The notes beneath the pieces were generated by a model. That model was not told the DNA's origin. It saw only the letters and a program-made list of their open reading frames with translations, and ran no database searches. Both the position numbers and the translations under genes were made by a program. DNA of 63,897 bases, counting the filler. It is 12 parts of 12 records of this genome, joined end to end, with 100 filler letters (N's around TTAATTAATTAA, not from the genome) between each part and the next. Parts side by side here need not be neighbours in the genome. Positions count along the whole stretch, not along the records: positions 24,751 to 38,030 come from SRR15195285_3218; 11 more parts are not named here. The stretch is one strand, 5' to 3'. Shown one piece after another: positions 4,423-44,516 of the stretch (within the stretch, counting starts at the first letter, position 1; each line of letters opens with the position of its first letter).

Positions 4423-4522
4423 NNNNNNNNNNNNNNNNNNNNNNNNNNNNNNNNNNNNNNNNNNNNTTAATTAATTAANNNNNNNNNNNNNNNNNNNNNN
4501 NNNNNNNNNNNNNNNNNNNNNN
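4423..4522. other. Artificial contig spacer (N44-TTAATTAATTAA-N44); first of 11
   Basis: Identical 100-nt spacers also at 9262-9361, 13433-13532, 20779-20878, 24651-24750, 38031-38130, 44039-44138, 47197-47296, 52828-52927, 56996-57095, 60567-60666. The 12-mer supplies stops in all six frames. Confidence 0.99.
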
Positions 4523-9261: not shown

Positions 9262-9440
9262 NNNNNNNNNNNNNNNNNNNNNNNNNNNNNNNNNNNNNNN
9301 NNNNNTTAATTAATTAANNNNNNNNNNNNNNNNNNNNNNNNNNNNNNNNNNNNNNNNNNNNCTCTCTCTCTCTCTCTCTCTCTCTCTGTCCTGCGCGCGT
9401 GCGCGCTGTTTCTCCATCCACCCACAACATTTCGTGCCTG

Positions 9441-13432: not shown

Positions 13433-14043
13433 NNNNNNNNNNNNNNNNNNNNNNNNNNNNNNNNNNNNNNNNNNNNTTAATTAATTAANNNNNNNNNNNN
13501 NNNNNNNNNNNNNNNNNNNNNNNNNNNNNNNNGGAGGCAACGATGTGATCGTTGCCCATCGCGAGCCTGAGGCGGTCAGGAAGCCGGCCAGAGGAAGCAT
13601 GTTTCAATCTCGTACTATATAGTAGAAATTGGTGAATAATGATTCATTACAATGATGTAATGAATACGAGATCTTAGGTAGTCGGCTGACAACGGCCAAA
13701 TCATCTCGAATCCTCGATCGGGCGCGGGTTCTGCGGGTGTGGGGGTGCCCAGATGCCGGTAGGCCGTTTAATCAAGGTGTGCCGCGGCATCGAGGCGTGG
13801 AGGTGAGCGTGGAAGCTGCTCTGCTGCTGCGTCGCGGTGCGCCGCCGGGTGCCATTGCGTGTGCCAACCTGCCATGTCGCATGTGCGTGATCTCCAGCAC
13901 GCAGTCGCCGCCCTGCGTCTTCGGTCTTGCGTCTGCCCGGCCTGCCCGTGGCTGGTGCCTATATAGTAGTGTTGTGCCTCTGTGCCATGACGCCGGGCTG
14001 ACCGCGGCGCGGGCGCCAGCTGGCGCAGAGGAGTGGTGAACGT

Positions 14044-20553: not shown

Positions 20554-20878
20554 CTGCGCCCGGCGGCAAGGCAAACACGGGCCGCGTGAGCCCAGAACGG
20601 ACACCAGAACGGCCGCTAGGCCGGGAATGGTAGGGGTGTGCGGGTGGCCCTCAACTCGCTCGGGGGGAGCTACATCTCGAATCGACCGCCCATCGGACGA
20701 CAAGCCGGTTTGGTCCCCGCGAGGACGGACAGACGCACGGACGCACGGACGCACGCACGCACGCACACACGCACACACNNNNNNNNNNNNNNNNNNNNNN
20801 NNNNNNNNNNNNNNNNNNNNNNTTAATTAATTAANNNNNNNNNNNNNNNNNNNNNNNNNNNNNNNNNNNNNNNNNNNN

Positions 20879-21511: not shown

Positions 21512-24262
21512 TCACAGCGTCCGATTTGTTCGGCAGATGATCATTTGCTCCGTCTGGTACTGTACCTTCTGTGTCTCCACCATGACCTCCATAAATTCTT
21601 CGAAGCAAAGCATGCCACGATCGCCTGCCACCTTTGTCGCCGTAGCCTCAAACGCTTGGATAGCTGAGCCGTTGAGCAGCAGCTTCTGCCTCGAACTGCA
21701 GTTCAGCGCCTCCAGGACTTCCGGCACTTGTCTCAACGGCAGCCGATTCAAAGAAACGCCTTCATCTGAAGTCTGCATCTCAGGGCCTCCCTCAGGCAGT
21801 TTTGAAGAGTCTGTGGTGGCAAACTGCTCAAAATAGTGGCGAATATCCCCAACGACTCTATCATCCTCTGCAGCAGTACTCAACAACTGTTCCAGCAAAC
21901 TATCGAGACGGTGTTGCTCGTGATAGCGATCGACTACATAAGCGACCAACAGGTTGACCAACACAACTACAACGCACACGTAGTAGACCAGGAAGAAGGC
22001 GTTAGCAAACCATGGGTGGCCGGACGCAAGCGACATGCCCTCCATCGTGACAATCCAGTTGTTCACAACCAAGAAGTCAAAGAGTACTACCTGCTCCACC
22101 AAAAACTAGGTTACAAAAGCGCCAGACAGGGCAGACATCCCTGGGATCTCAACCAAAACACAGACTGATTTTGCGCAGTTCGTTACCATCGCGCTTCCAA
22201 GATCATTGAAATTGTTTGGATAGTAGTGTAGTGCATCAAAACTTGAGTTATGGAGTACAGGATTTCCCTCATAGGTCTGACCCCCAAACATCAGAATCCC
22301 AAGTTGTGCAAAGAACAGCATGACGATCAAAAGCACCGAGCCCAACCGATTGAAAACTGGAGCCAATTCTGAGAGAGACTGGAAAATAAGCGAGAACTCG
22401 CGGATGTTTGTGAGGACTCGCAGCACCCGTAACGCACGCAGCAAGGTGCAAAAACGAGTCACTCCATGACCGGGACCCACGACTGTGTCGTGGACCAAGC
22501 CTTGTGGCAGGTGCAACATTATCTCACCAGCTACAGCAATGATGGTGATGACTCCGTCGAACTTGTTCCGAAAGGTGGACCAGTACGTGCGCAAGCTCAA
22601 AGTGCTGACCTTCACCAGCATTTCCAAAACGTAAATCACCGTGAAGGCAAGCTCGACTATCGGTATCGCCGTCTTTTGCCACCCGGAATCGATGTCGTCC
22701 ATATACACGACTTCGTACATGATGGTGCATGTGTTTATAATGATCACCACCATCATGCATCGCTCGATTTGCATATCGCGCTCCCTTATCGTGCGCCGCA
22801 GACGGTGGCGACTCAACGTGCTGGAAACCTTCGCTCCCGACGTGCTTCCATTCCGACTGTCGTCCATGACTCCGTTTGCATTGCTGCAATTCTGCACCGG
22901 GGGCTCTGTCGTACCGATTGATGCAGTAGCTTGATGCAGTCTTTGCATCGTTGCCTGGTTACCCAATGCGGCATCCTGCGCGACTGACAGCAGTCGACAC
23001 AGCTGCCTGAATTCATCGCAATTGATGTATTCATCGCCGTCCGCATCGATCATCTGAACTGTGTGCTCGATCACGTCTTCGTCAAGCTGCTGACCGTGCC
23101 AGTCGAGTGTGCGAACGAATTGTTTGAAGACACTGATAGGCAATGATCCGGTAGTCGCCGCGGTCGACCCACTGGCACTAGGCTCCATTGGCTGCGCACC
23201 TGCAAGAAGCAGCTGAAAAGCTCGGCCCAGTGAATCTTCTTGAACTGCTGTATCTTGATTGACCCGGCTTTCCATCCGATGTTTGTGAGAAGAGTACACC
23301 GATGCGAAGACGAGATTCAGCGATATGAAGATCCCAAACGACGCAAAGGCAATGAACGGCAAGGCAAAGACCCTGTGGTAGCCGTACGCTTCCATATAAA
23401 CATCCGGAAAGTTGGCAGTGGTAAGGATGGCAAAGGTTGACAGCAACGCTCGCGGTAACGTGCCGTAGTACGCCGACTCGTCGCACTCGGGAGGCTGACA
23501 GAAATTCCGAAAGAACGCAAACATGACCGCCCCAAACCAAAGAACGAAAAATGTAATCAGACACAGCATAGCCTTAATGTCCCAGAGAACTTCTACGGTG
23601 AGCAACATGCGCTTGCGCAAAGATTTGCTGCCGATCGTGCAAATCACTGGGCGCAAGATGGGTGCCAGCCGCCACGTCCGACCGTCAGACAAAGCGAAAG
23701 CGTGTTTGGCTCCCATGTCGAAGACACAGTCAGCCGCGCCAACCAGCACGACGAGCAGGCGAACTTTACGCCACGGATTGCCCCAAAAGTCGGCTTTGCC
23801 CCGATAGCACCGCATCACCACTAGCTCGGCCAATAATGCGGCGTAGCACGCAAGATCGACGCAGCCAGACGTGAAGGTTGGAAGAAGTGGCATCCCGCTC
23901 ATTGGGACTGCTTGGCCATCTGGAGAGGCACACGCCGTGTGGTAGCACCACGCTGGTCGCTCGAAGAACGATAGACCAAGGTATATGGCTGCAACTATCT
24001 GCATCGGCAGCCATGTGTACACTCGAAATGCCAACGTCTTTCTCGCCAGATCCTCCTGGCCATGTTCGACGTCGTCTGCTGTTGTCCGCAGTGGCTCGTA
24101 GAAACGGTCCAGGTCTCCAGTGGCCATCCGACCCACCTGTGACGCGACCGAGGTGACGTGGCGTAGCGGGTTGAATGAAGTCACCACGGCCGTTGCCGCT
24201 GCGGACTGCAGGGCTACGGTGCGGTTGCGTTCCCGCAGCGTGAGCGCGGGGTGTGGTTCCAT
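21512..24262 (-). CDS. TPC: Two-pore cation channel (TPC)
   Basis: Two 6-TM repeats; FFERPAWC; pore 1 LTTANFPDV; linker EF-hand DADGDEYINCDE; S4 LLRALRVLRVL; NNFND; pore 2 LVVNNW after removing intron 22091-22186. ATG at 24262; the 3' end may include a further intron. Confidence 0.92.
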
Positions 24263-25235
24263 AACTTTTCTCAACAGTGAGCTCGCGCAGTTTGGTGCTC
24301 AAGAATTGCGTTGTCGGACCACACGCTACGCAAACAGCGGACGCCGGCGATTCAATGAGGCAGCCTACTCACACTGCGGTGCTAGGCCGCGACTTTCCCC
24401 AGCTAGGCACCCAGCAGCGGCAGCCCCACAGCTTTTTACGCGCACCATCGCGACATTCGTGCGCACGAGTTCCCGCCCGGGGGCGGCGGCGGCCGCCGCG
24501 GCGCCCGCGCGCGGGGGCCGGCGCGCGTGTGCATGTATATACACGTACGCGTATATGCCGCGCACGCACGCGCTATGGTACACAGTACTACTCGAGTAAG
24601 TAAATTTGGGTCGCCGGTGCGCCCAGAAATCAGGTACCCCGGGAAGTGCANNNNNNNNNNNNNNNNNNNNNNNNNNNNNNNNNNNNNNNNNNNNTTAATT
24701 AATTAANNNNNNNNNNNNNNNNNNNNNNNNNNNNNNNNNNNNNNNNNNNNCCCCCCCATCAAGTTGTACAGAGTACACGCGGGACTTTGGATTCCTCAAG
24801 GTTTGATTCGATTGATGGACACCCACACGCAACTTGCGTGGCGAGGTTGAACCTGAAGGGGTTGCTTGGCAACCCCGCTGGCACCTGGCGTGCTCATACT
24901 AGACAAAAAGCGGGATTTACTCCTCGCTGTTGTCCCGAGTCCAGAAGGATCCGTCGTTGATGCTACACGCCTTAGGGATGGCGCAGACACCGGAGTCAGA
25001 CCCCGTGCGCGATGCGCTTTTTAAACTAGACGACATACCAAACGTGAGGGTGATGGGCCTGTTACGCGCGCGCGCGGGTCATTCAGATCTACCTGGTAGA
25101 TCTGATTTGATCAAGAATGGTCGAAAATGAAGACAAAAAAAGCTGTACTATCGCCGAATTTTACCTCGTCAGAAAGCTCTCGCCGAGAGGTTTCTGGCAT
25201 GGTGAGACTTGCCTGTGGGGCGCCCCGGCTCCGGC

Positions 25236-28200
25236 TCAAAGAATTCGATCAGGTTTTGCCGTCCTCTCTGCGCGCGATTCTGGCATCGAAACGGGGCGCT
25301 GCTCTTGCGCATAAATATCCTTCAGCTCCTCATGAAGGGCTTCCTCCTCCTTCCACTTTCTCCTCAGCGTCTCCTGGTGCTTCTCTCTCTCAAGTGCGTC
25401 CATAGCCGTAAGAGGCTGGACAAACTCGTCGCGCGCAATTTGGGCACGGAAAGCCTCGGCGCGGGCGTCGAAGATAGCCTGGCAGCACCATCTCATGGCG
25501 GCTGATGTCTTTTCGTCCCGGTACTGCGACTCTTCCACAATGTCATTCAGGCGTGTCCTTGCCTCACGGAAGACAAACAGCGCTGTTGTCCAGTAGATCG
25601 AAAGCGCTGGGGAGCAACAAAACCGGTGAGTTTGTGCAGGCACAAGCGTCTCTATAAGCTCTGGGGACGTACTACTTTGGTCTGCAAACTTAACGAGCAC
25701 CGCCCAGAGCGGCAGAAGTACCACAGCACCTTTGCCCGCAAACTTCCGCGCAGCCTGTTGTTGCCAGGAGGAGCCGCTATCCTGCGCCCGCATTTGCCGT
25801 TTCTCTTCCTGTTCCTCGCCTTCTCGCTTCCTCTGGTCTTCCAACGTGACGACAATCAGGTAGCTGCGTCGAACAAACCCAGGTTATCGTTGGGCATTGT
25901 TGAGCTCTGGGTGGGCAGGCTTACAGTTCTTCGACGCGGATGAAGTCTTTCAAAGACAGCGCAGTGTGTCCGCACACGGCGTGATGCACCCAGTCGATCT
26001 GAGTGGCAGCAACACAGACTCAGAGTGTTCTCGGCACCAAACGAATCCAGGGACGCGCACCATGTAGGCAAACTCCTTAAACGGAAAGAAGCTGCTGATG
26101 AAGCGGCCCCATTGGTTAAGCCGCCCTGCGTCGGTGCAGACGTGTCAACTCATGTGGGCCGTGCACAAAAACTTTGTGCCGTACCACTTTCAAGCAGCCA
26201 TCGTCGACGATGTATCGTGTCATCCGCGTAGCCATGCATGATTTGAAGCGCTGACTGGTGGCAGTATGCGCAGAATGCTACCGAGAAAAAACGTAGCACT
26301 GCACCACCACACTCGTTGAGGCTGGTTATTTCTTTACGTTCGCACTGGTTGATCAGCTTCGTTCGGGCCCAAAGGAACAGAAACGCCGCGTACATGGCAA
26401 TGGACACCAGCTGCATGACGAGCTTGAGTCGCCGTGCCTTGTGCAAATAGATCCATCTGTCCAAGACGGTCTGGAGCAGCAGTGCGGTGATATACACAAT
26501 CAGTCCAACTGGTGTTGCCTTGGCAGCATCCTGCGCACCTTGCAGGTCTCTGGCGCTCAACGAACTGCCAAGGCCCTTTACCAGGCCAATGATGTCGAGT
26601 GGTGGCTGCTTCTCACTAAACGTTGCCATGCACAATTCATGCCTCCCGCAAACATTCGGATCACGGTGCCAAGGCGAACTTCCAGGTGCGGTTTTGAAGG
26701 TTGAATCCAGATTCCATCTGGGGCTGACTCCAAGTGTCAATCCATTGTCATCGTCGCCAGCAGGTGACACAGTCAGTGTGACTCCATATTGCTGGTGTGC
26801 TGTCATGGCAGAATACTGCGCCTGGCCGATGTCTAGCTGCTTGGAGGCCAGCCTTGCAAACGCGGGGAAAGAAAAGCCTAAGAACAAGGACTCCGTCTTG
26901 TTTGCTCCATTCGACAGCTTCTTGCTGTCACGGAAACGAATTCACTTCAGCGTCGCGCAAAACAGCCTGCAGTTTGGGCGGGGACGTACAGCTGTTGGAT
27001 GTCATTTGGCCGCAGTCGCAAAACTTGAGGGTGAACGATGCCATCAGCGTCTCTGACACTAGTATCAGCTCTGACAAATGTAACCTTGAGATTGGCCTCC
27101 ATCCGAGGGGTCTCAGCCTCGGATATTGTATCAAGATGAGCACGAAGTCGCTGACGAGCTGCTGTCTCCTCCCAGCTGCGCACAGCAGACAAAGCGTTAG
27201 CATAGACAACGGTTGCACCTCGATGAAGCGCACCTCGCTTCAGCCGGTTGCCCAATCCGAATATTGGCAATCTGCTGCGGCCCATCGCTTAGGTCATATC
27301 CCTGGGACTTCATTCTTGCCTGCACTGCCTCCTTGCCCGTGCTGCTAGCGAGCGTCGAGGTGCACGTTTTGTCGGCGGAAGTCCACGTGCAATGGGTGAC
27401 ATCATCTACCGGGCACTGGTCTCCGTACCGCGGCCCTGAGCTCTCAGACTGATGGAGGAATGACGAGCAGAAGGCGTCGCTGCCACTATAGTCGTTGGTG
27501 TAAAACTTCTGTAAACTGTCCACGCTGTCGGGCCCGCTGTCCCACGAATCGCTAGGCGAGATTTTCGTTGCAGACGATCGATACACTGTGTACGTACAGC
27601 TCCCGCTCGGGCACTGTTCCATTGTGATATCGAGCTGGACCTCGACGCTCGTCACATCATTCAGTTGCATCTCCATTCCGAGATTGAGGTACAGCCATGG
27701 TGCGAGCAGAACACAAAGCAACTGCGCGCAGAGCATCTTTGTGTATGTGTCAACGCCTTTTCTGTGCCAGCTCGAACGCTTCGGCTCAAATGGCCAGCCC
27801 GAAAACAGTAGATGTCTGAGTGCTTTGAATCGCCTGAGGCTCAAGCCAGGTTGTTGTTCTGATATGAAACCATTAAACCAGGCCCGAACTTTGGAGGAAA
27901 ACCACGCGCGTGTTTTGCGTCCACGTTTTGGCAACGGCGGCAAGCCGCTCAATCTGTCTTTCAGCATTTCTGCATCCATCTGCAGGGCTTCGATAATGCC
28001 ATCTGCGAGAGGCGATTCTTGCCAACCTCGTGTCAATGGATCCCAGTAGCCTCGAGTCCACACAGAAGAAATGCCCCAGTGGTGCATGCCTGGTAGGCGC
28101 AGCTCTGATTGGTGAAGGTACCATACAAGGTCGGTGAAAACATCAACATCTTGCTGCTCGATCGACTTGTACAAGGCCGCTACAACACACCGGTCGAGCG

Positions 28201-31200
28201 TAGATGACGAGACCGTCTGCTGGTAGATCGCCCGTCCAGCTCTCTCCCGTACGGGCGCAGGTGCGTCTACGTGTGCCAAAAACAGATACGCATATCCCTC
28301 AGGCCCCACCACCTTCCGAGTCCGTCGGCCTCTAACTATTCCCGGGAGCTTAGCCAGCTTCTGATAAACATTCGCCGGTGTGACCCACTCGCCCTGGCGA
28401 ATGCATCGTCTCTGATGCAACAGCAGCATCAGCAGCAGAAACCAGTCCCAAACAGCATTTGCATTTATATCTATGAAACCGTCAAACTGACGCAGGTTAA
28501 CGCCGTAGAAGCCCTCATCTCCTGCATTCCAGCTAGGACTGGCCGGCCAGGCCGACATAAACTTGACGAAGATGATTCTGACCTCGACCAGCGTGATGCA
28601 AAATTGCCAGAAGTGAGCCTGCTGCCTTGTGGTACGGAACTCTTGCATGGCAACTGACTCAGAGTCGATCTGAGTCGCCGGCACCACCCCGCAATAAGCG
28701 AACCAGGCAAAGAACACGAAGAATGACGGCGTGTCCATGTGGACAACAAAGTTGACGCTAAGCGCAACAACACAAAGCACTGCTGTCTGCCCATAGCAGG
28801 CTAGCAGGGCGGCGCGAACCACGTCTGCCAGCCTTCCATCAAGCTGCTCCACCAGTCGACCAAGAAGGGGCTGGCCCTTGACGAGTTCCTTCACGGCTGC
28901 GTCGAGGCCTGACGCGCTGGGACCAGCATGCTTTGGCGATTGGGATGTGAACCATGGCTTAGTCGCCATAGTGGGGACAAACGAATGTGGGCATCCGCTG
29001 GCTCGGCTTTGCAGCCACCCAAGCAGAGCTGCACCTACTCCCCGCTCACTCGTTTGTGTCTGCAGCCAGCGTCGGTAATGGCGCTGAATCGAGCGGGCAG
29101 CATGGTCAAGGCGCGTCCCTGTCGGAGATGTGCTATGTGTCCGTGCGTCCGTACTCGTAAGCAGCCCTGTGAAGTAGAGTACCGCTTTGTCCCCGAACAT
29201 CAAAGCTTGTGTGCTGCCAAATGCTTCACAAAGATCCGAACGCTGACCATCGTAAGCCTTCGTACGTTGGAGATTAGCACACTGTTCGTCACGTGCGTTG
29301 AGATAGTTAGAACGATCCTCGGATCCTTGCTCGTCGTCACGCTGTTTCGCTTCTCTCTTCTCCGCCTCTAGAGCAGATCGGTACGTCTTTGTCTTCAGAA
29401 GAACCTTCAAGCAGATCGCGATGCACAAGCAAATGCCGGCTAGCCATATGCTAATCATACTTTTAACACTGTCACTTCGAAACTTGTGCACGCCCATCAC
29501 GCTCTGCCAGCTGCCTACGTTGCAGATATCGCTTTTCTTGGAGCCGTCTGCATTGAGGCAATTGCTGAATATCGGCATCTGGAACGCACATTGGACCAAC
29601 AGTGAACCTGTGGCAAAAGCCATCAGGGCTGCGATGCGCCCATCCGTGTGTTCAATCCGCCTGTGATCGTGCAGAAGCACTATTGCCGTGTACACGTAAG
29701 TCAGCGACAACAAATCGTTGTCAAACGGTTGGTAGGAAGCAAAAGCAAGGGATGCCACAAGCAATGTGACGACTCCGTCGTACACAGACAGCACACGTAT
29801 GCCCACAACGTCTGCAACTCTTTGCGATATCGACCGCTTAGCTGTTGCAGCCCCAAGCGGATCCTCGGTCTCTACCGTCTGATTACTCAAGACCTTCTTC
29901 CTTCGTCCTTTGAGCTTTTCAAATCTTTGCTCGCAATCGAGCTTTCCAGGAAACAGCAGATCGTCTTTATAAAATTTATGGTTTTCTGCCCGCAGGTACA
30001 TGTCATCCAGCAGGTGCGATTCATTGCTGGTGAAGTTCCGTGTATTCCAGCGTTCGGCGTGCTGTCCCAGGTCCTGCTCCAACGCCCACTTCGTTCCAAA
30101 CCGAACGCGTGCGAACGTACTGACCACGAACAGCACCAAACCATCGACAAGCAGCTTCCAGCCAAACATGTCCTCGGACGCTAACCAGTGACGCCAAGTG
30201 TGTGCGTTAGCTGCGCTGCTGCCGGCGCCGCATGGTTCGAAGCCAAGGCCTAACATGTATCTGACCACCAGCATAGCAGCCAGCATGCGGGAGGTGAAGC
30301 ACCAGTTTTTGGGGTCGTATGATGCGAAGCGTTGCTCTCCGATAAGAGACGGCGTGTTGAACCAGAACAGCAGCACTGCGTACGTGCCGCACATGATGTC
30401 ACCGCCTCCACCTGTGTCCGGCGCGCCACGCAAGCAGATTCCAAACAGAAATGCGAGGTAACACGTCGACCTTTGAACGTTTGCAAGTGTGATGTAATTC
30501 TCGATCGTGCGCCAATATTGTGCGTTCGACTCTGAAACAGATTCTGATGGTGGTTCTGGAACCGGTTCTGGTTCGGCTGTGGAATACGCTGTGGATGCAT
30601 ATTCTGCATCCAGAGCACGTTCCGTAGCCACCGTCATTTTATTCAGGGCCTTCCACTGACTGTAAGCATTGAGTATTAGAATCGCGATGGCGAGCAAAAC
30701 CAATATGCTTGATGACCCAGTGATGCTAAACGAGCTGCTGATCAGAAGCGTCGTTCCCACCAGGTACCGATTGATGGACGTGTATTGTGCGTCACTGTGC
30801 AACCCACGGTGCGTTCCTGTGACCAGATCGCAATCACGTGTGCTGCTGCCCAACGCTGTTAGCCAATGGACGTCAACGCGAAGCGCCAGTCGCGCCTGCT
30901 GAATTTCGCCGTGCACTGCCAATCCCAGCGTCACAAGGACAGGAGCCAGAATCGCCCAGTCTGCGACGGACGCCAATGACGAGGTACCTGTTGTTGCGCC
31001 CACCAGCCAAGGAGCACAACAGTACCACCATCGCACAGCCACATAGTACATCCCTTGGGCGGCTCCAACGGGCACAGACGCATTGTCCAGCTCGTCTGTT
31101 TTGTTGAAATGCTGCCCCGCACCAAACCACGTCGGCCCAGTCGATTCGGCCCAGCAAGTACCGGCAGTACCAGTGTTGCCGGAGCCAAACGAGAAGGAAG

Positions 31201-34200
31201 CAATGAAAGAAGACGAAGACCATGGGTCCGTTTTCACCAGGCGAAGCAATAACAACCAGGTCAGGTGCATCACGGCGACAAAGAACACGACGCCGATCCA
31301 ATTTGCTGGCACGAAGCTCCATGTCCGGACATGGCGAAGCGAATCATGCCGCCACTTTGCCATTGGCCAACCGTTCACATCCTGCTCACGACGCTGCGAC
31401 CCGTCCAGTCCAGCAATGCACACAAACACACCAGTGCAAAAGTAAACACCGCTGGCGATGGAGCCGCTCCATGCGCCGGCAATGATCATGCATGCGGCTG
31501 TGATCAGGTCGCCAAGTTGTGACTGCGTAATCACCCAGAGCGGTAGCTGCGCGGTCGACGGCCTGCGAATCTGGCTGCCGCGATACAACCACACAACAAC
31601 GAAAAAGGCAATTGCGTCCGGCCAGATGCTGGCCCATGGTCCGGGCGGAATGTTGGACGTGTCTTCCACCGCAAAGATTCGCAGCAGCTTCACAGTACAG
31701 TTAACGTTTTGTTCATCAATGAGGCGCGTCATATTGCGCAGTTCTTGGCAATCAGCATCGACCATCTGCGCCAAGTACTTCGCGCCGATCGTCACCCCCA
31801 GCCACACAATTGCAAGGACAATGATGCCGTCAATCCACTGCGTTCCGGTATGAACAGGCTCGGCTTCGGACTCGTGCTCGGGCTCAGGCTGGGGCTCGTG
31901 CTCGTGCTCAGGTTCAGGTTCAGGCTCGGGCTCGGGCTCAGGCCCCATCGCAGCTAGCAGTTTGTCCAGCGTCGGTCTGTCCAGCGTCTCCCTAACGCTG
32001 CAACTCACAATGCTCACCAGTGCCACGACCACAGGCACACCAAAGGGAGTCCAGCACTGGCGTAGAGTTGTCAGAAAGTCGGAATGGCCGTCATGCGCCG
32101 CACACGCTTCGTTTGCTGAAAGTCCAATGACATTTGCCCATCGAACAGCGGCTGCAGTGAGCCATTCGGGGCGACCCATACACTGCCACGAATACAATGC
32201 TAGCACCACGATCAAACAATAAAAGAGTGAGACACGGCCAGCCTTGGCCTGCCCATCCGTGGATGAGGTAGCACCCCACAATGCCACTGTAAGGTACAGT
32301 GCGTGTAGGAGATCAGCCTTCTTCTCAGCGGATTGGAAAAAAGACGGATTCAATCCGCTGATCAGCAACGCAGCCCACAACGGGTAGAAAGCACAACGCC
32401 TAATCCAGATCACAAGCAACTTTGCTCCCTTTATGCCGAGCTTCTCAGCTGCCGCTACAATCTCTGGGGACACCTCTGTGTCAGTGGCCTGCGAATGCTG
32501 CTTTGAATCCCGCTGCCGATTGTCAGCCTCCTCCGGGCCGTCCCTCGAAGCTACGTCCGCACTCTCCACAGACGTGACCATTCCCGCGGCAACTGCGCTC
32601 TTGAGCTGCTCCTGGTCCGTGGCATTGGAATCGCGGAGGGTCCGTGGCAGCTCAAATGTCACCGCATCTTCGGGCTCGGGCTCGGGCTCGATTGTGGCTT
32701 CGGGCCCCAAGTGACCATCGACAGGTGGATGCTCGGGCTCAGGTTCGGGCTCGGGCCCCGTCGCAGCTAGCAGTTTGTCGAGCAGACTCTTGGACAGATC
32801 AGGATTTTCGGAGAGGTTCTCTAGCGTTTCCCACAGCTCTTTAGCCGAATTGCGCAACAGACTACGCTTTGCTTCTGCCCATTGCTCGCCCTGTTTCAAA
32901 ATAGCCTCTACGCGTGGTCTTAGCTGTGCGATTGCGAGTTCCTTCGATGCTGTGCCTCCACTATCACGCATCCGCAGCAGCAGTTTTGCTGGCTCAGCAA
33001 TGCCGGAGCGGAGCTCGTCAATGCTAAACTCCTCGGCGTTGTCTAGCGCCGCTTTGACGTCCTCCCAGGCCATTGCCTGCTTACTTACAAGCTGCTTCAT
33101 CTTAGGACGCAAAGACGCGATGGCGAAATTTCTCGCAGCCGGGCTGCTGGGATGTTGCAGGCGCTTGAAAAACGCTTCAGGATCTTCTACTGCAGACTGC
33201 ACCTCGTCCAAGCTATCCAACGGCTCTAGAGCACCACGAATTTCATGCACCGACAAGTCCAGTCCTTGTGCCCCGAATAAAGGCACAAGCCTTTTGCTCA
33301 CAATTGTCTTCAGCAGCCGCAGGGCCAAATCTGCAGGCTGCTCGATGCCTGCCTGCAGCTCCTCAAGTCCGGCGCTGTCCACTGCAGGAAGGATAACCTC
33401 CCATCGCAGGCTACGCTCCTCTATCTGGCGCTGCAACTTCGCCTTCACACTGTTCCGGGTCAGCTGCTGTCGTGCGATGAACGCTTCTGGATCACGCATC
33501 ACGTCTTGGAGTTCGCGAATATCGTGAATTCTGTTGAGCGCTTCGCGAACGACCGTTTCGTCGAGACCCCGTTTCTTGGCACTTCTCTGGATAGCGTCCC
33601 GCATCAGCTGCAAACAGAGATCCTTCGGTGCTTGCCGCGCTTGGCTGAAGACGGCCTGAAGTTCCGACAAGCTGTTCTGTCGTCGAAGATAATCACTGAC
33701 CTCTCGGCGCGTGCTATCATCGCCGATATTCTTCATCACCTCCAGTTTTTCAATCTTGCTTGCAAGTGCGTTGCGGGTCGCCTTTACGCACAGATCTTTC
33801 GGCTGACGCAGGGCTTGCAGCAACTCTGTGCTTGAGAGTGAAGCTATGTGCGGCTGCAGATCGTCCCACATGATGCCGAATGGCGCTATGAGGGGTTTGA
33901 CAACCGGTGCCACCTGGTCGTTGATGATGGTAGTCTTTGTCTGGCCAAACTTTTTCATCACAGCCGTCCGTGCAGGTTCTATAAGGCCGTACAAATAGCG
34001 CACAGCTCTCGAAGATGCTTTGAACCTGGATGCCGATGCCGTTGCGACACGGGCGGTCCAGTCAGCAACCACACCCTTCGGATCCACTGCACCGGCAAAG
34101 CCAGCGAACGCCAGGCACTGGATAATGAATCGTCCACCGAACTTGCCGAACAGTGGTTTGCCTAACTTTGAACCGCCGCCAATTGCAGCGGACACCAGCC

Positions 34201-37200
34201 AGTGCATGTCACACCAACGCGTTGCGTTCTGTTTGACGTCCACCAGATCGCCCCAGGACCCTGAGGCCGAGCCAACGTCCGATGGGCACCGGTCATCCCA
34301 CAGTGTGTGCGTGCAGTCGTAGAGGTATTGAAACAATATCAAGGCTGCCACGATGCAGAATGTTGTGACCCACGCACACCGCAGGCACGCACACCGCAGG
34401 CTTCGTTGCGACTTGGTTGCATAGGTGAGACAAAATAGGTAGATGGGCACGACCATAGCCAGCAAACACTGCAATGCCATGATGAGCACCAGTGCGCATG
34501 CAGCAGACAGCGGTATGGTGGGCAGCTGGCTCCTTTCATCCCGTCGGTCCACCATCGCATCATTCTGGAGTGCAGAACCTTGCTTTCCATCAATCGCAGC
34601 CAAATCGTCCAGCTTCGGCTGCGACTGTGGCTGCGGTTCTGGCTGCGGTTCTGGCTGCAGATCCAGCTGCGGATCTGGCTGCAGATCCGACTCGAGCACA
34701 AGCTCGAGCTCGGAGCCGATGAAAAATTCGAGCAGCTTTCCGACGTCACTTTCATCAAGTCCGGGCTGCTCACGTTTGTACGCGCGGGCCACGCGGTCAT
34801 GCAAACCGGCCAAGTCTCGCCTTTCTTTGGCAGTCGGAACGCACTCGTACGAATCCTCCGTCTGCATCAATTTTTCCTCACAAGTCCTATCAGAATGGAA
34901 GACCGGCATAAAGCCTTGGATGTTGAAAGCCCAGTGGTGGTCCGCAACCTCTGTAGGATGCCGCCGCCCGAAAATGTATCGGTCGGACCCACCGGTTGGT
35001 CGATGATCCTGCAAGTACGCCTCCAGGAACTGGTGCTGCAAAAGTGCCGCGCAACAGGAAAGCAGTGCCAATCTAGCACCAATGTTGATAATCAGCTCAG
35101 CATGAAGCACACCTTCAGCTGGAAGGCTGAAGAACACAGCAGCTGTGCCGTTGGTGGGGATGTTGAAACTCAGAACAGCAAAGTCGACAAGCAGATGACA
35201 AGCGATGTATACGGTCAACGGCCACAAACATGATCCGCAAACCGGTGGAGTCATGGCGCTTGACTGCAGGTCGTTGATGTGGTCGGACTGGCGGAGCCAA
35301 AGTACATGCCAGCCAAGAAACCCGGCAGGCAGTAGAAGATATGGAACGTGCAAGAGTGTCCGCGAGGTACCACACGCAACAATTAATGCTGCCACTGCAG
35401 TAAGTTTGATCACAACTATTTTCGCGGGCGAGAACCTATCTCTCTTGCGCACATACTGCATGTGCGAGAACAGTTCCACCCTCCGTTTCGTTGAGCACTC
35501 TGGCTCCGGCTCGACATGTGCAGCGTGCACGAGGGCTGACCCACCGTTCCATATCTCAAAGGCCGCTATGACAAGGGCGACGGCATCGAAAACTGTGTTC
35601 AGCGCGCCCTGAGTGCTCCCGCCAAACCAGTCAGCCGGCCCAACAACGTGTGCCCACCATTCGTCGCCAGGGCGCTTCAAATGGATCATGAAGAGCGCGA
35701 TCACGCCCACAACAAATGGAGCGGTTACCACCACAGCATCGTAGCACCCAAGGCCACCTCGAAGACTGCGCAACGGCAACGTCGCGAGCACAAGTCCCGC
35801 TAGGACAGCTACCCATCCACTTTGGGCACCGCAGACAAGGGCCAAACTGACGCCTGCAAACACATCTCTCCACCCACGCTGCTTGTTGTCGACAAAAGTC
35901 AAGCGGTTCTCCATCCAAAATTCTAGCAGAACATTCTGAGCGTCAGGCAAGGGCAAGCGGTCTTCGTTAATCTTGTGAACCTTGTGCTGAAGGGCTTCCC
36001 GCACCTCAGCTTGAATCTCAGAATCACGGGTTTGTCTTGGGGATTTTTGAAGGGCCAACGAAGCCCGTTTCATGCTCATGCGCGGGCTTAGCATGTCCGA
36101 CAGCTTGGAAACTAGACCGGTGCTCTGAGTAGAGCTACTCAGATACATTTCCTCGGCCTTGGCCTTGGTGTTTGTGTCTCCAACGCGATGGTAATTTTCT
36201 TGCAGCAACGACCAGAGTGAAACTAGCACTAGCAACAATGTGCACAGACACGGCTTTCCAACGGCGCACACAGCAAGCTTGCTTGCCTGCGGCAGATGCG
36301 CCAGGAAATGGTACAGCACATATATAGCTATCAACAGAAACACCAGCAGAACGACGTCCGCAAGAAACAGGGACAAGCTGTCTTGTTGCATGAACGCTGC
36401 AACTAGTACGACGGCCACCAAAAGCGTACCAAGGTCGGCATTGCCTTGCTTTTTATCTGCTTTGTACAACGTCCACGCTATCGGAATGAACGCCATAAGC
36501 AGCGGGAAAAGGGCAAAACTCCAGAGGCAATTTGTGTGGCAAACAAAATCCACGAGCGACGAACAACTCCACATACATGCCTTGATAGTGGGATTGTAGA
36601 ACAACGACATAAATGTAATCATAATCGCTGGTACAGCAAGGTTGAACAGCAAGTCCACCGTTTGTGGCTCGTTCCCAAGCCTCCGCAACTGCCCCTTGCA
36701 ATTTGCGAGTGTGTCTGCGGCAATCATCCAGCGAAGAACCTCCTTTGCGTTCCACGCAGGATATAGAAGCCTCAACCAACGCGGCGCGGAACGGGCATCT
36801 GCTGCAAGATGTGATGACAGGTCGAGGAATTGGAGCATGTGGAGCCAGCTCTCGTTGATTTTGTATGGCACAATGTCCACTTCTTCTGTTGCCCACATCA
36901 CGAACCAGTAGAACGACGTCAATGCCACAAGCACGACGTCAAAGCCAAACCATACCCAGACACCGGAATCGAATGTCGCGGGCCAAGCAAGGTCCACTTG
37001 AAGCACCCCAAAAGCCCACGCCGCCACAGGCGGGGTTGCAACCAGCACCAAAAGCCGCACCACCCCCCACGCAAATGAGTACACTGCACTTCCGCAACTC
37101 TGTCCCGGCATTGGCCGCAGCGGGTGCCACTGAAATCGGTGGGCGCTTGCGAGAGTGGCCGCCCCCAAAGCAATGAATGTAGCTGGCGGAGCATGTCGAT

Positions 37201-37936
37201 AATACGATATCATTGCTGCGCAGAGCACGACCAGCCCAAGACCAAGTAAATGGACCCAGTAATCATGCTCGCGCGTGAGCCCGCATCGTGGCCCGCATTT
37301 AGCTCTAACCACATTTGCTGCCTCTGACAGCCAAAGCGCAGCAATCCACGAGACAGCTGTCACGCACAATAGCAAAACGAATGTCACATGGGCAGCGGCG
37401 CTCCAAATCGTCCGAAGCGAAGCACAGCCGCCGATGAGCATCAGCATTATACCAATGGCACCCACCCACTTCGCATTGGCACGACTTTTGTAGTAGTGGC
37501 GAATCTCAGGCTCAGTTCTGTTGGAGTAAAATCTCGCTACCGCGAATGACTCGAGCTCGCGATCGGCCCCTGTCCGTGGTTCGGGTTCAAGTTGGTTCTC
37601 CTCATCCCCTTGCCTCACACTTACCGGTATGCTCTTGGCATTTTCGGGGGAAGGTTTGGGCCCGCGGAGGTTACTGTCGTTTGGGTCTGAATCCGCGTTC
37701 GATAGGGCGGGCTGGACTGTGACCGTCCGCACAGGGGGGGAGCGGGGGGGAGCCACACCGGGGCCGTCTTCTCGAAGGGGCTGACCCAGCTCCTCGGTGC
37801 GTGACTGCGAAAACAGCCCAGGCGCCTGCCTAACCTTTGGCATGCTGTACGCGCCAGCCTTGACTGAGCTTGAGCTCGCGTTGCCGCCTGGGCTCCGGGC
37901 TCCAGGCTCCGGGCTCCAGGCTCCGGCTCCAGCCAC
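25236..37936 (-). CDS. PIEZO: Piezo-family mechanosensitive channel, ~4,100 aa, atypical architecture
   Basis: Exons 37936-27234, 27175-26990, 26924-26185, 26125-26061, 25998-25925, 25863-25673, 25606-25236 (all GT-AG, total 12330 nt, in frame). Hallmarks: DTYT TM, VLDRWIYL..ARRLKL, QSALQIMHGY, anchor FPFKEFAYMIDWV...TALSLKDFIRVEELY, inner helix LSIYWTTALFVFREAR, CQAIFDAR, EEEALHEELKDIY. Start uncertain (GTG 37936; first ATG 37843; may be truncated). Confidence 0.88.
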
Positions 37937-38130
37937 GACAGGTTGGCCACTTGGCCTCGGCCACTTTCGTCGCTCCCGGAGCGGCCGCGCGCGGTTCGAC
38001 CGCCGCCGCCGCGGGTTGCCGCCCGGCGCCNNNNNNNNNNNNNNNNNNNNNNNNNNNNNNNNNNNNNNNNNNNNTTAATTAATTAANNNNNNNNNNNNNN
38101 NNNNNNNNNNNNNNNNNNNNNNNNNNNNNN

Positions 38131-41100
38131 TGCATGCTATGCTTTCTCAGCAGGGGCTCCCAAAACAATCGCATCTCGTTTGTTATTGCCGAAGGCTTCA
38201 TGTCTGCATCCCTCTTGTCACTGTAAGCGTCTTCAAAGTCTAGGCACGAGTGCGTCTGACTAACCTGCTTGGTCGATTCATGTGAATCTGCAGTTGTCTG
38301 TGCAGTGCCATCAAATGTAGCCTGCTGAGTGTCAGCCTTCAAACGCCAGCACTTTGCTACTAGCTTGATACTTTGATGGATATATGCTCTACGAAACAGT
38401 CGCTGAACATCATCACGTCGCACTTCTGTAGACACTAGAAGTAGTTTTCGCCCACATATCGTTCGGTACTTGGTCGCATTGTGGCGGCCTGCTTGAAATG
38501 CATTCACCGTCGCAATTGCCTTTGTATGCATGCGCCATGTTTCCATTGCAGATGTGGAGGCACTCTGAAGCCCGTAGACCCGGCTGACAGGACGCGTCTC
38601 CTCCAGATCACCATCCGGGTTACCATCTGCGTGCGCAGCTGCGGTCCCAACACTCGATTCGATGTTCTGTTGTGCGGCCACAAAGGCCAATGCTATTCGC
38701 ATTTTTCTCGTGCGTCGAAGACGCTCGGTTGTCTCGTTGGTGAGAGCACTGGTGAGCGAACTATCGTCGACCTGATCACGTTTCGATGTTGGCAAAAGAA
38801 TATTCACTACAATGCGTTCGGATGCTCGATCACCACAACTATCTTCAGTCCAACGCTGTGATGACTTTACCACACCTGTGTGGCCAACGAAATCTGAGAT
38901 CTGGTGGTCTAAAATGCGGACCACATCGCCTTTCTTGAGTGGCTTCTTACTGCTATCGATCCATGTCGTAGCAATCCCCCGGGCTGTTGTAATTACTGCA
39001 AATATCGATGGAGCAACAGCAGATACAATATTGGAACCCACAAGCAGCTGATCATAGAAAGCGATCCCCATCTTCTCGCCGGCCAGGTTTATTTTTATCA
39101 TCAAGAGGCACAACATTGTAATGAAGAGATTTGCCTCGGATACAATTGCAATTCGATCGGTCGTTGCGGACTTGTATGGCGTAGTCTTAGCAAGAGCAGC
39201 AAAGAATAAGAACGAAACAACCAAGCCCCAAAACAGCTGGGTGATGCTGCCAGGTTCGACAAAAATTAGAACCCCCGTGAGCACAAGCTTTTTGACATAG
39301 ATCACTGGCTCCCACCAATAAAATTCCGGCTCGTACGCTCGACAAAGGAAGGCATAACGCTCAACAGCCGAGTTTCTATCGTCCACGCGACGCTGCAGAT
39401 CGTCTGCAATTTTTTGGCGCAGATGACGCTGTCGTTGGCTTTCAACCTCTGTGCGGCCGTGAAGCTCCAATATATTCGTCTGCACAAGTTTACTAGGACG
39501 ATGGTTCCGTGCTGTCCGCAGTGCGTATCTATAGAGTTCATCTAACGTCAAGAACCCGTTGTTGTCAAAGTCGATATCAGAAAATATTCGGCGAACCTCG
39601 GTCTCAGTCCACGGTATGTCACTGTCAATCGCACGCACAATTCTCGCGAACACCTGGGGGCTGATAGCGTTTGACACGTCGTCGGAATGTGATATGTCAT
39701 CTCGATTTTTATACAATAGGTATAAAAACCCAAGTGGCACGCCAAGGGGAATCGCAACAGTAAGCACAATAAAAATCACGAGGTACACCTTATAAGATGT
39801 ACTCGTGCAATCAATTGATGTGTCCCGTTCGTGCCAACGCTCGCCAAAATCCAACTGGTGGCATGAATAAACTGACAGTATTGTTGACGAGACTGTGGGA
39901 TACATCACAAAAGTTAGCAGCATAATCCACTGCAAGCCTGTTTCAATGCGTTTCTCGTACTCCTTTGCAACTGTTGTCTCACGAATGGTGCGCATGCCAC
40001 CTGTTGACGAATTTGCTTTGGCGTTGCTGAATCGTGTAACCCGAAGAACCATCAATCCAGCCATCACCTTCCTAGCCTGTAGTGCTCGATGTGCCGCGTC
40101 TTCATCCTCCATTGTCACGACAGCCCAGGAAGTGCCCTCGTCCTCCTTAGCCCTGACTGTTGCTTGAATTACCTGACCAAATTGTTTGAACAGATCTATC
40201 ACCGCCTTCTCGCTGGCAAATGTCCGTGGAAGTCCGTGTACGTGGAGTTTAGCCAAGTTTTCAGTTTGATCTGGGTGTATGCGCATACTATTCGGTCGTC
40301 GGTGTGAGTTCCAGTAAACGAACGCGCTTACAAGGACAGGCAGCGACACTATCAAGCACGATTTTTCGACGTATCCAATCCTGATGTTCATGCAGTCGAG
40401 AGACACCATACTGAACACATCGAGACGTACCCATGCCAGTGACTTTATCATTGCCTTCATTTTTGTGCATAGATGTACCGGGCAATGAAACTCAAATGTG
40501 ACAGGGAGTTGAATAATGATTTGCAGATTTCCTATAATGATTCTCAACGTGTCCATCAGTAGATCCAAAGAACCGTCCTCAATGATAGGTTTGGAGTCAT
40601 CTGTTTGATCTACCTTTTTGACGTGCTGGCGAGCGACTTGTGACACCAAGTACTGCTTTTGCATCTCAGCAATTCGTTTGCGTGCGATAGAGCAAGCTCC
40701 CCGCATGCGCCAGTAGAGCAAAACAATCCCCAAAATTATCAAGACGGATGCGATTGGCAGTGCCCATTTAGAGCTGGATCCACACTTTGTGCAAATCTCA
40801 TCAAACGATCCTTCAAAGCCTGGCGAACACGTTCCACATAATGCGCCCTCGTGTCCTTGAGTGCATGTTCCTGCAAGGGTAAAGTTACAACCTTCAGGCA
40901 CTGGGCATGAAAACAAAGAGCGATCAAGCACAGCTGTTTGACTGTCGAGACCAGCTCCAAACAGCTTCTTTCCTCGGTTTGAAAAACTCCAACCAGGTTC
41001 AACGCGTGGCTCCAGACCTGGTTCGTCGCATATGGTACATCGCGGGCACCTCAAGCACTCTAGGCCTTGACTTATCTGCTCGCGCGTGCCATCGTATTCA

Positions 41101-43748
41101 CTCTTCAGGATCTCTTCGGAGCTTCCTCCTCTAGGAAAGTCGCCGTCAATGCAAAGAATGAGTCCGAACGACGAATTATAGTGACCGCTATCACAGACGC
41201 ATACAGTACCGTCCAGTGACGGTGTTGTACCGATGCTGCACGCTGTGCATCCGGATTGTTCGTTGTTCGGAACCTCGTTGCCAGGGCACCGAGAACACTG
41301 TGCTGCTCCCAATTTCCGCATCGTTCCTTGCGGACACACAAACGAAAACGTCGGTCTTACATCAGGGTCGATCGTGCTTGTTATAGGACTACTAAGCAAT
41401 GGACTTTCTGAATCATTGAGTTGATCATCAAGATTTTGTAGGACAGCAACCGCATTTGATGAAACAATGACAAACGTCACAATGGCATCCTGACGTTCCG
41501 CCAATTGTCTGCGTCCGTCTGATTCCACCACGACGAGGTCTGTAACATATATATCTGATCTGTCAATGTCCAGGGAAGAAGCGAGCTCTGTGACAAACGA
41601 AGTGGCAAACCTGCTTTGTTGTACAGATTCTGCAGCCAAAGCCGCTGGATCAATAGATGCCAAACGGAGCGAGATCTGGGGTAGAAATTTTGAAGTTGAC
41701 GGATTTTCACCGACACCATCCCCAATGACAGCAGCAACAGTATGAACATCTGTTAAACCATCAGATTGGCTGATATCGTCACACCGAACCTTTGCATGGT
41801 TCGCAACAGTACCACTTCCACATTCTTGACAAACTCCGAACGTCGAGATGAAGTTGCCAGTACATGGTCTGCATTGCGTCCGACTGTCATTCGGCTCTGT
41901 ACCTGGAGAGCAAGCTGAGCACGTCTGATGAGCGTCACCTACAACGTTCGGTGCAGGACACTCTTGGCACTGACCCGTGATGCTGTACTGAGTGCCAGTG
42001 CACGGCTCGCACGCGGTGCTGTTTGCGTTCGGACCCTCGCCCGCTTGGCAGGTGATGCAGCTCGCAGCGTTTGGCCCGACAACGTCATTGCATTGCTGAC
42101 ACTGCACTCCAAACTGAGAGTACGTCGACCTCGTGCAGTCGACGCACGCACTTCGATCTGCGTTCGGCTCTTTGCCTGGGCCGCAGCTGTCACAGAACGT
42201 GTGCGCTTGATTCGCCACTTTCCCGAGATCGGTGCATTGCTCGCACGAACTCCCGTGAGTGCTCACGTAACCACTGCCACAGTCGAGACAACCACTACGT
42301 TCCACATTCGGCTCCTTACCAGACGGACAGCTCGAACAAGATAAGTGTGTATCGTCCACGATGTTTGGAGAGGCACACTCTACACACTGACCAGTTGTGG
42401 AGTAGTTGCGACCGATGCAGGTCTTGCATGCTCCGTTGGTCGGTCCCGAGCCTGGACCACAGTTGAACGTGCATGCTGTTCGAGCGACGTCGGAGTACTT
42501 GCCGGCGGGGCACTCGGCGCACGCCGTCGACGAATCGAGATCAAGATCGACCTTACCATCGACGCAAGGTGTACACGCTGTTGCGCCGATGTAGTTCGGA
42601 GTGTTCGTCGCGCTTCCGACTGGGCATACCAGACAGGGCGTAGACACATTGTCGTCGTGATCAAACTCGCCCAGAGGACATGAGGTTGTTGTAGTGCAGC
42701 CAACAGGATACGAGAACACTCCGCAGTTGGTCACGTTCCACTGGAACTGGTTGGAATAATGCGGAAAACACTCGGTGCACGTAACGATCGGGTAGCCGAC
42801 GTACCCGTCCGCACAGCGCCGTTTCAAGCCCGAAACTGTCGTGGCATTTGCGATGAGATCATAGCCTGTGGGGGAGTTGCCAAACGGTGTGCATTCCGCT
42901 TCGCAATGATAGGGACGTAATTCATGGCCATTGAAAAAGTCGTTTTCTAGCAAGACTGAAATTCTGTCGTGGTGTCGCCCTTGAGACATCTCACTCTGGA
43001 GGTATTCATCTATCCACAAGTCATCGAAGAGGCAGGATCTGTAGTAAAAACCACCATGGTTTCTAATGTCCATCGGCGCGTTCCATGGTGCAGCATTTAG
43101 ACAAATATTGTTGTAAAAGGTGAGGCTGTGTCCTGGGCAGTAGTTGATGCGCATTCCGGAAAGCGAAAACATGTACGACATGTCCGTGGCCGACGTTGGC
43201 GTCCACGAGCTTAAATCGACACCAAATGCTGTAGCCTGTTTGAATGTATCCTTGAAACTTTCGACATTCGCGACATTCCACGAAGATATATCGCCCGAAA
43301 AACTCGTTGCTATGTAAAACATCGCGTACATGTTGACGCAAGATGACGTGTCCCACCGGGAAATATCCTCGTTGAAATGGGTTGAAAGTGCAAACAAGCC
43401 TGCGTGCCAGATTTGGTATGGCGGATGATAATCCTGAAACGGGCACCAATCCAAGGCTTGATCCCCAGTTGGTGTATCCCAGCAGTTGAAGGTGGTCACA
43501 CCGCTAACATCCCACGTTGAAATGTGACCGTACGTTGCGTAGGTTTCTGGGCAATCGTAGGTGGCGTCACACAGACCACTCCACCCGGCACATTGCACTT
43601 CTGTGGAGAGCACTCTGGACTCTACTTTGCACTGACGAACCGCTGCAAATAGCAGTTCGTTTGTCATCACGAAGCCTGTCACAGCCGATGGCGGGTCGTC
43701 TTCTGCGCGAACGCTGATGAGGGTCACCAAGGCAGCAAGTGTGCGCAT
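38131..43748 (-). CDS. Signal peptide, DUF285/BspA-like repeats, Cys-rich stalk, SEA-like domain, multi-TM core with inserted RRM and EF-hand; 3'-truncated
   Basis: MRTLAALVTLISVRA signal (ATG 43748); FNEDISRWDTSSCVNMYAMF / FSGDISSWNVANVESFKDTF repeats; CxxC repeats; NLQI, YP, FYWWEPVIYVKK TM core; RRM 40029-40250; EF loop DFDNNGFLTLDE 39537-39572. Confidence 0.82.
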
Positions 43749-44516
43749 GGCGAGGCCGTGAAGAGCGGAACTGGACCGTTGCCTGAAGCAGCGCACCGGC
43801 ACCAGGGACACACGCTCAGCACATGCCACACAGAGCGAGCGAAAGCACGTGGCCAGACAAGCGGAGGGAGAGGGAGGCAAGCATCTGTCGTGACCTTGTT
43901 CGACTTTGTTCCCTTCGCGATCGTTTCTCGTTCTCGTTCTCCCCCCTCCCCCTTCCCTCCCTGTGCGTTGGCCTGTGCGCTAGCAGTTTCTTGGTGCCTT
44001 GCAAGGGCGTCCCCAACGAACCAGCGAACCGACTGGGTNNNNNNNNNNNNNNNNNNNNNNNNNNNNNNNNNNNNNNNNNNNNTTAATTAATTAANNNNNN
44101 NNNNNNNNNNNNNNNNNNNNNNNNNNNNNNNNNNNNNNGACAGATATTGCACCTACGCCCGTGATGCATTTTTTCATGCAAGCACTCACACAAATGGAAC
44201 ACTACTAGATCTAGTAGGATCCTAAGGAAGAAATGCAAATGCAAACACTAAACTCCGACTCGCCAGCGACGCATCCATGTAGGTAGCGCGCGCTATACTA
44301 TAGTATGTAAAAATGCAATGCTAGCATATCGAGCATACCATACTATGAATAGTATATAGGAATTCCTACATGTAGTAGCGCCGCGCGCGCGCGGCCTTGA
44401 TTTAAAGAGCGCGCCGCCGCCGCGGTATACTGCGTGACGGATCGCCGTGACGCGTACCGTCGGTACGCATCGCGACGCACGACGGCAACGGATTTTCGAA
44501 CCTCGAGGTAGCAGAC

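Follow-up and report, generated by a model that had tools for sequence, protein, structure and literature searches.

The window analysed here is a 63.9 kb stretch of DNA from an uncultured marine protist, one contig of which (positions 24751-38030) carries a single, very long minus-strand gene coding for a Piezo-like protein. With a probability of about 60%, this protein is a very divergent, transcribed Piezo in which, within the C-terminal third, two adjacent blocks have exchanged places. In canonical Piezos, transmembrane helix 33 (TM33) is followed by a block made of TM34, TM35, TM36, the anchor and the outer helix, then by the cap, the inner helix and the C-terminal domain. Here, TM33 would be followed directly by a cap-like ectodomain, and the block running from TM34 to the outer helix would lead straight into the inner helix and the C-terminal domain. 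In every Piezo examined so far, the cap is placed between the two pore helices. An earlier sequence-only reading of this DNA had claimed that the cap is relocated. Its absence between the pore helices and the presence of a cap-like ectodomain upstream are borne out, and the evidence that this ectodomain is a cap, with a borderline Piezo_cap match and two motifs, is weaker but specific.

The assignment to the Piezo family is carried by the THU9 region. On exon 26185-26924, the Pfam family PF24874 (Piezo_THU9_anchor) is found with an E-value (E) of 9e-13 and 48.6 bits, for a cut-off of 28, over profile positions 40-135 of 238. The match is repeated in a second scan (E 1.2e-12) and in the relative P0001, a protein fragment from another assembly. 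Furthermore, a solved Piezo chain (9uoy_A in the PDB) matches the THU9 stretch (E 9.7e-4), and the Pfam family THU_Piezo1 scores 20.9 bits, under its 27.2-bit cut-off. The N-terminal Piezo Pfam models find no match in the predicted protein, along which hydropathy delineates ~37-39 hydrophobic segments.

For the helices and the cap, the comparison was made by eye with a published alignment of 28 Piezo homologues (PMC3681921, Fig S1). As in canonical Piezos, a long variable cytosolic stretch precedes TM33. The landmarks from THU9 onward follow the canonical order, namely DRWIYL (residue 3816), SALQIMHGY (3885), PFKEFAYMIDW (3922), TALSLKDFIRVEELY (3941), the outer helix (3994-4018), IYWTTALFVFREAR (4021) and CQAIFDAR (4059), each pattern being found once or twice in the 4140 amino acids (aa). 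The patterns were drawn up after viewing both sequences, and were counted in the spliced 4140-aa protein and in shuffles (Table 1). The outer helix, from K3994 to S4017-T4018, spans 25 residues, the same as in the family (K...S-[ST]), and the distance from the inner-helix arginine to the cysteine of the CQxIF motif, 24 residues, equals that of mouse Piezo1. In the by-eye register, mouse L2475/V2476, described in a preprint as the hydrophobic gate of mouse PIEZO1 (bioRxiv 10.1101/2023.09.28.559900), align with L4027/F4028, and S2472 with T4024. The inner helix is ~9 residues short at its outer end compared with the canonical one. The identity of the two helices as Piezo pore helices, put forward in the sequence-only reading, is supported by the anchor that precedes them (Pfam), by the motif register and by the CQxIF spacing; both assignments are very likely correct.

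The peptides that had been quoted for the outer and inner helices are present in frame 1 of the minus strand, which reads ...RKFAGKGAVVLLPLWAVLVKFADQSSTSPELIETLVPAQTHRFCCSPALSIYWTTALFVFREAR..., with the K of KFAG at 25745-25743. Between them lie 66 nt that had been proposed as an in-frame intron with a GTACGT start and a CCCCAG end. This sequence is confirmed, and its splicing is seen in an RNA contig from an estuary metatranscriptome, X1 record 1 (231 nt). In this contig, 25606 is joined to 25676 with three letters between, which is what excision of 25607-25672 together with a single-base difference at 25675 would give. The skipped stretch ends in CT..AC on the plus strand, that is, GT..AG on the gene strand. 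A second RNA contig, X3 record 8 (243 nt, 0 differences, oligo-dT library), is collinear over 25545-25787, through the intron, and represents unspliced RNA, pre-mRNA or carried-over DNA. The spliced product, ..LWAVLVKFADQS/TLSIYWTTALFVFREAR.. around the junction (slashes mark exon borders), reads ...VLVKFADQS/TLSIYWTT... and leaves the approximately five linker residues (ADQST) that had been predicted. The gap between the helices amounts to 2-5 residues after splicing and to 27 if the intron is retained, retention adding 22 residues. Counted from the S-T that ends the outer helix to the I-Y of the inner helix, it is two residues, versus ~250 in mouse.

One of the two RNA contigs is thus spliced at the junction and the other collinear, and neither holds additional sequence between the helices. 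Because both were assembled independently of the window and both show the junction, there is no additional sequence between the pore helices, and the worry that a collapsed assembly had removed it is ruled out. Within the stretch covering the outer helix, the inner helix and the tail, the only amino-acid difference between the window and an RNA contig is Ser4017Asn (25675), inside the 2-5-residue linker; the other three listed differences in the pore-helix stretch are synonymous.

The cap-like ectodomain lies four helices upstream of the inner helix, in the TM33-TM34 loop, which counts ~20-25 residues in canonical Piezos (published alignment) versus ~345 here. A Pfam search with its last 138 residues reports a single family, PF12166 Piezo_cap, matched by residues 5-119 (E 0.29, 11.1 bits). 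The match, situated at the HMMER filter limit, recurs with the same alignment in five of nine overlapping variants (E 0.20-0.37, 10.8-11.7 bits). Three of the eight pieces searched gave any weak Pfam match, among 24736 families, and the odds that one of these would be Piezo_cap by chance are of the order of 1 in 10,000, which makes a chance match unlikely. Two cap motifs occur once each in the protein, [FY]P.[FY].[RK] as SFPAFAR at residue 3679 (18 of 1000 shuffles) and [FIVM][SN][DE][KE]..PP as FSEKQPP at residue 3763 (1 of 1000 shuffles). They stand in the same order as in mouse, 84 residues apart versus 77. Further collinear cap blocks are recognized by eye, including the first strand after the helix, a conserved tryptophan and a D-I-Q..L..N-G block resembling the Arabidopsis sequence. 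The junction between the cap-like domain and TM34 falls inside one exon, and the same junction is found in P0001. Taken from sequence comparison, homology of this ectodomain to the Piezo cap is likely.

Several observations weigh against the swapped order or the identifications on which it is built. The Piezo_cap match stays under the 26.9-bit cut-off, and it is lost without the first 5-20 residues of the exon (four of nine variants) or with TM34-36 appended. The first two ectodomain exons yield nothing Piezo-like in Pfam or PDB searches, and the anchor and outer-helix/inner-helix/tail exons find no match in Pfam, the PDB or the ESM Atlas. AlphaFold2 models computed without an alignment are too poor for use, with a mean predicted local distance difference test score of 55 for the C-terminal 208 aa and of 33 for the cap-like 138 aa. 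The PFEW motif of the anchor, PF(X2)E(X6)W, is invariant across the 28 homologues (PMC3681921). In its strict form it is absent from the spliced protein, where PF(X1)E(X6)W occurs once instead, at residue 3922, where the motif is expected; this PFEW-like motif also spans a predicted splice junction, the donor of which, GTGCGC, is that of an RNA-verified intron. The inner helix has 12-14 apolar residues and falls under all three hydropathy thresholds used, and in the spliced form it may not be long enough for the bilayer. The shuffle counts overstate the significance of the motifs, the patterns being post hoc; judged by its order along the protein, the collinear set would still be hard to obtain by chance. 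Finally, the searches made found no relative beyond 88-97% identity, so that any age or spread of the arrangement is unsupported.

Some of these points would equally fit a capless Piezo, which has lost its cap and carries in the TM33-TM34 loop an unrelated, lineage-specific insertion as an extra extracellular THU9 domain. The modest scores of the Piezo_cap match (10.8-11.7 bits) and the first two exons devoid of Piezo likeness agree with such an origin, as do the length of the ectodomain, ~100 residues over that of the canonical cap, its 8 Cys, and an ESM Atlas search with the cap-like piece that returned no usable match. An unrelated insertion would, however, have to account for a Piezo_cap match among the three weakly matching pieces, ending ~20 residues before a TM helix, which is unlikely by chance, as well as for two cap motifs at canonical spacing and by-eye collinearity across four further blocks; it is accordingly considered quite improbable. 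An assembly artefact, in which a collapsed or chimeric contig dropped the cap or misplaced exons, is scarcely credible. The window indeed joins short contigs of a fragmentary assembly, but the outer-helix/inner-helix junction is covered by two RNA contigs from different studies, the cap-to-TM34 junction is contained in one exon and seen again in P0001, and X1 record 3 bridges the first two ectodomain exons.

Two other explanations concern the pore helices. The mRNA retaining the intron might be the productive one, the 66 nt then coding for a 27-residue linker and the spliced form being minor or regulatory. The oligo-dT contig X3 record 8, identical to the window, crosses the intron, which is in frame and stop-free, and retention extends the inner helix by an apolar outer end (..RFCCSPALSIYW..), giving it 18 apolar residues instead of 12 behind a loop of ~20 residues. 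Against this, the intron is spliced in X1, shares its donor GTACGTCC with intron 26925-26989 and has a size typical for the gene; its third-position G+C content is 0.45 versus 0.61 in coding sequence (over 22 codons only); a single in-frame intron free of stops in a set of six is compatible with chance; and the collinear contig may also be pre-mRNA or DNA. A productive retained form is possible but doubtful. The gene could also be a decaying or non-conducting paralogue, with a hairpin too short for the membrane, the channel function being supplied by a canonical Piezo encoded at another locus of the genome. Such decay would be in line with the subthreshold inner helix, the broken strict PFEW spacing and the extreme sequence divergence. 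It is hard to combine with a 4140-codon frame open across six introns, with a gene that is transcribed and spliced, with the 7 of 12 variants that are synonymous, and with the conservation of the inner-helix gate-region residues and of the CQxIF motif, and appears unlikely.

In the swapped-block Piezo favoured here, both blocks begin and end extracellularly, so that the exchange would keep the membrane topology and the orientation of the helices. The outer and inner helices would form a tight hairpin, and the gate-bearing part of the inner helix would be kept despite its lost outer end. Given the family membership, the kept gate region, the expression and the share of synonymous variants, the protein would still form trimers around a conducting pore, lined by the C-terminal domain and the shortened inner helices; channel function is inferred from these sequence features. 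The cap-like domain, tethered to THU9, would sit over or beside the pore mouth, and might pass blade movement on via THU9 rather than via the pore helices. In a more far-reaching version, the cap would be detachable from both pore helices and reattached to THU9 in a working channel whose cap-to-gate coupling runs via the blade and not via a linker from cap to inner helix, the 66-nt intron being a remnant of cap exons that switches between loops of ~5 and 27 residues and hence between two channel forms; this version is rather improbable.

One general route to reordered protein segments is a tandem duplication after which the outer copies are lost. Here, duplication of the segment formed by TM34 to the outer helix plus the cap, and then deletion of the first helix block and of the second cap, would yield the observed order. 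A two-cap intermediate is not known. An intron at the exact site of the old cap would fit a loss of cap exons between two introns. Smith-Waterman comparison reveals no trace of the duplication, the scores of the candidate repeat pairs being matched or exceeded by 798 of 2000, 1340 of 2000 and 197 of 500 shuffles. An internal duplication, with a second anchor/outer helix before the ectodomain or TM34 as a copy of the inner helix, had looked plausible by eye but was rejected on these grounds, shuffles scoring as high. Chimeric helices at the block borders were also rejected, as TM33 and TM34 each align gaplessly to their canonical counterparts.

Compared with canonical Piezos (mouse and human PIEZO1/2, and those of plants, amoebozoans, Naegleria, trypanosomatids, Entamoeba and Trichomonas; PMC3681921), the protein shares a putative many-helix blade, the variable cytosolic stretch before TM33, a THU9 with DRxxYL and Q-I-x-x-G-Y, and an anchor with a PFEW-like motif and T-x-L...V-E-[DE]-[IL]-Y. 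The likeness extends to the 25-residue outer helix ending in S-T, to the inner-helix signature Y-x-[ST]..L...[KR]..R and to the C-terminal CQxIF..R. In contrast, the cap-like domain stands in the TM33-TM34 loop, and no cap separates the outer helix (TM37) from the inner helix (TM38). The inner helix lacks ~9 outer residues, the anchor has PF(X1)E and not PF(X2)E, and the whole protein exceeds 4100 residues, with large inserts.

The site that receives the ectodomain has been documented as a cap-contacting one. According to the preprint on mouse PIEZO1 (bioRxiv 10.1101/2023.09.28.559900), the TM33-TM34 loop makes contact with helix alpha2 of the cap in an intermediate state, and deletion of K2000-P2017 in this loop abolishes mechanical activation. 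Another study (Lewis and Grandl 2020, PMC7021530) reports that, for gating, the cap must be mobile and in contact with the blades. Since the mouse loop contacts the cap and cap-blade contacts are needed, a cap carried by the TM33-TM34 loop could sit near its usual place. The likeness with these mutant and state studies lies in the loop itself. The mouse work altered a canonical channel by means of deletions, crosslinks and chimeras, whereas here a natural covalent attachment to the TM33-TM34 loop would have replaced that to the pore helices.

A wider meaning can be drawn if the swap is real. Current models of gating and inactivation assign a role to the covalent link between cap and pore. The present protein would offer a natural test of whether this link matters, or only the position of the cap and its contacts with the blade. 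It would also indicate that a topology-neutral block swap can happen inside a 38-helix membrane protein. The case is limited, with one uncultured organism and a borderline cap homology inferred from sequence.

The arrangement proposed, with a putative cap outside the pore helices, is absent from the 28 published Piezo sequences compared, the cap following the outer helix in every sequence of the alignment that covers the region (PMC3681921). The canonical layout is also stated in a T. cruzi Piezo paper. No Piezo with a cap outside the outer-helix/inner-helix loop is reported in the literature covered, from which most subscription journals were absent, and other members with such an order may exist outside the data searched. 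A phmmer search of 1.84 billion proteins returned two matches, P0001 and P0002. The former is a 227-aa fragment, 88% identical, from a one-member cluster on one 1074-nt contig. The latter was rejected as a relative: it is a 4132-aa tandem-repeat translation, and its 25 weak matches to the query are an artefact. No relative came from word-index searches queried with the C-terminal open reading frame (ORF), the THU9 ORF or the 660 residues that end the large ORF. Of three loci given by a metagenome scan, L002 was rejected, having only the word DRWIYLHK in common with the query, within an unrelated gene; the other two cover the 42 query residues matched by L002, likewise at 45% identity.

The gene model is summarized in Table 1. 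The gene ends at a stop codon at 25236-25238, and its frame is still open at the contig edge, 38030. Downstream of a large ORF (27197-38074) come small ORFs in shifting frames, which six introns in the 3' part of the gene (58, 65, 59, 62, 61 and 66 nt, all GT..AG) join into one 4140-codon frame. This open frame depends on the introns, because only one of the six has a length divisible by 3. Two introns have the donor GTGCGC, two have GTACGT (in both cases GTACGTCC), and one each has GTACGG and GTAAGC. Splicing is seen in RNA contigs for two introns, 27176-27233 (X1 record 3) and 25607-25672 (X1 record 1), both in the estuary metatranscriptome. The matching RNA contigs come from runs of three studies and cover parts of the 5.2 kb of the gene searched, the uncovered parts being uninformative; among the 12 listed variants between the window and these contigs, 7 are synonymous.

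Table 1. Features of the Piezo-like gene, in window positions or, where marked aa, in residues of the spliced protein.
Feature	Position	Strand	Basis and remarks
Piezo-like gene	25236..38029	minus	7 exons, 4140 codons, no internal stop (spliced model); partial
TM33, aa 3432-3451, preceded by V-D-T-Y	27677..27736	minus	Hydropathy; gapless by-eye alignment over 25 residues, with family D-x-Y start
Cap-like ectodomain, ~345 aa (aa 3452-3797), 8 Cys, three exons	26516..27676	minus	Gene model, motifs; between TM33 and TM34
PF12166 Piezo_cap stretch with SFPAFAR and FSEKQPP	26567..26911	minus	Profile 113-218 of 298; borderline
TM34-TM36 of THU9 (DRWIYL, SALQIMHGY)	26210..26524	minus	PF24874; 9uoy_A; also in P0001, 88% identity
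Anchor, exons 26061-26125 and 25925-25998, with PFKEFAYM/IDW and TALSLKDFIRVEELY	25925..26125	minus	Motifs; definition from PMC3681921
Outer helix, aa 3994-4018, KFAGKGAVVLLPLWAVLVKFADQS-T	25673..25745	minus	Hydropathy; first hydrophobic segment after the anchor
Probable inner helix without outer end, aa 4019-4034, LSIYWTTALFVFREAR	25557..25604	minus	Motif in register; mean hydropathy 1.6 over 12 residues
C-terminal domain-like helical tail (..IVEES.., CQAIFDAR)	25239..25556	minus	Gene model, motifs; no database match
Intron, 58 nt, GT..AG	27176..27233	minus	Spliced in RNA contig X1 record 3; gene model
Intron, 65 nt, GTACGT..CAG	26925..26989	minus	Predicted
Intron, 59 nt	26126..26184	minus	Predicted
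Intron, 62 nt, splitting the anchor exons	25999..26060	minus	Predicted
Intron, 61 nt	25864..25924	minus	Predicted
Intron, 66 nt, in frame, stop-free	25607..25672	minus	Exactly at the canonical cap start; absent from X1 record 1 (spliced), retained in X3 record 8
Pattern DR..Y[LV]	aa 2905 and aa 3816		Shuffles matching: 84 of 2000
Pattern [AS]x.Q[ILV]..G[YFL]	aa 3885		Shuffles matching: 58 of 2000
Pattern PF.{1,2}E.{6}W	aa 3922		Shuffles matching: 45 of 2000
Anchor pattern, 15 residues	aa 3941		Shuffles matching: 0 of 2000
Inner-helix pattern [LIF]Y.[ST]..L...[KR]..R	aa 4021		In register with the family; shuffles matching: 0 of 2000
Pattern C[QTED].[IL][FY]..R	aa 4059		Shuffles matching: 16 of 2000

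Other features of the Piezo ORF (window 27234-38029, minus strand) include runs of Pro-Glu dipeptides at residues ~1560-2060, where a Trypan_PARP Pfam match is spurious, and, between transmembrane blocks, a long insert that resembles repeated helical modules. Hydropathy reveals no hydrophobic segment in residues 1240-1927.

The window as a whole consists of at least 12 contigs chained by 100-nt spacers (44 N, TTAATTAATTAA, 44 N). Eleven identical spacers are present, at 4423-4522, 9262-9361, 13433-13532, 20779-20878, 24651-24750, 38031-38130 and five further places. As the window is a concatenation of short contigs, gene neighbours across the spacers are no evidence of linkage. Other membrane proteins are predicted along it. 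On another contig, an ORF at 57098-60223 (plus strand) with RSN1_TM and RSN1_7TM is OSCA/TMEM63-like, a second mechanosensitive-channel family. A 1949-aa ORF at 38133-43979 (minus strand) combines DUF285 and many Cys-rich repeats with a TRP-like membrane part, and a 730-aa ORF at 22109-24298 (minus strand), with two Ion_trans stretches and an EF-hand pair, resembles a two-pore cation channel.

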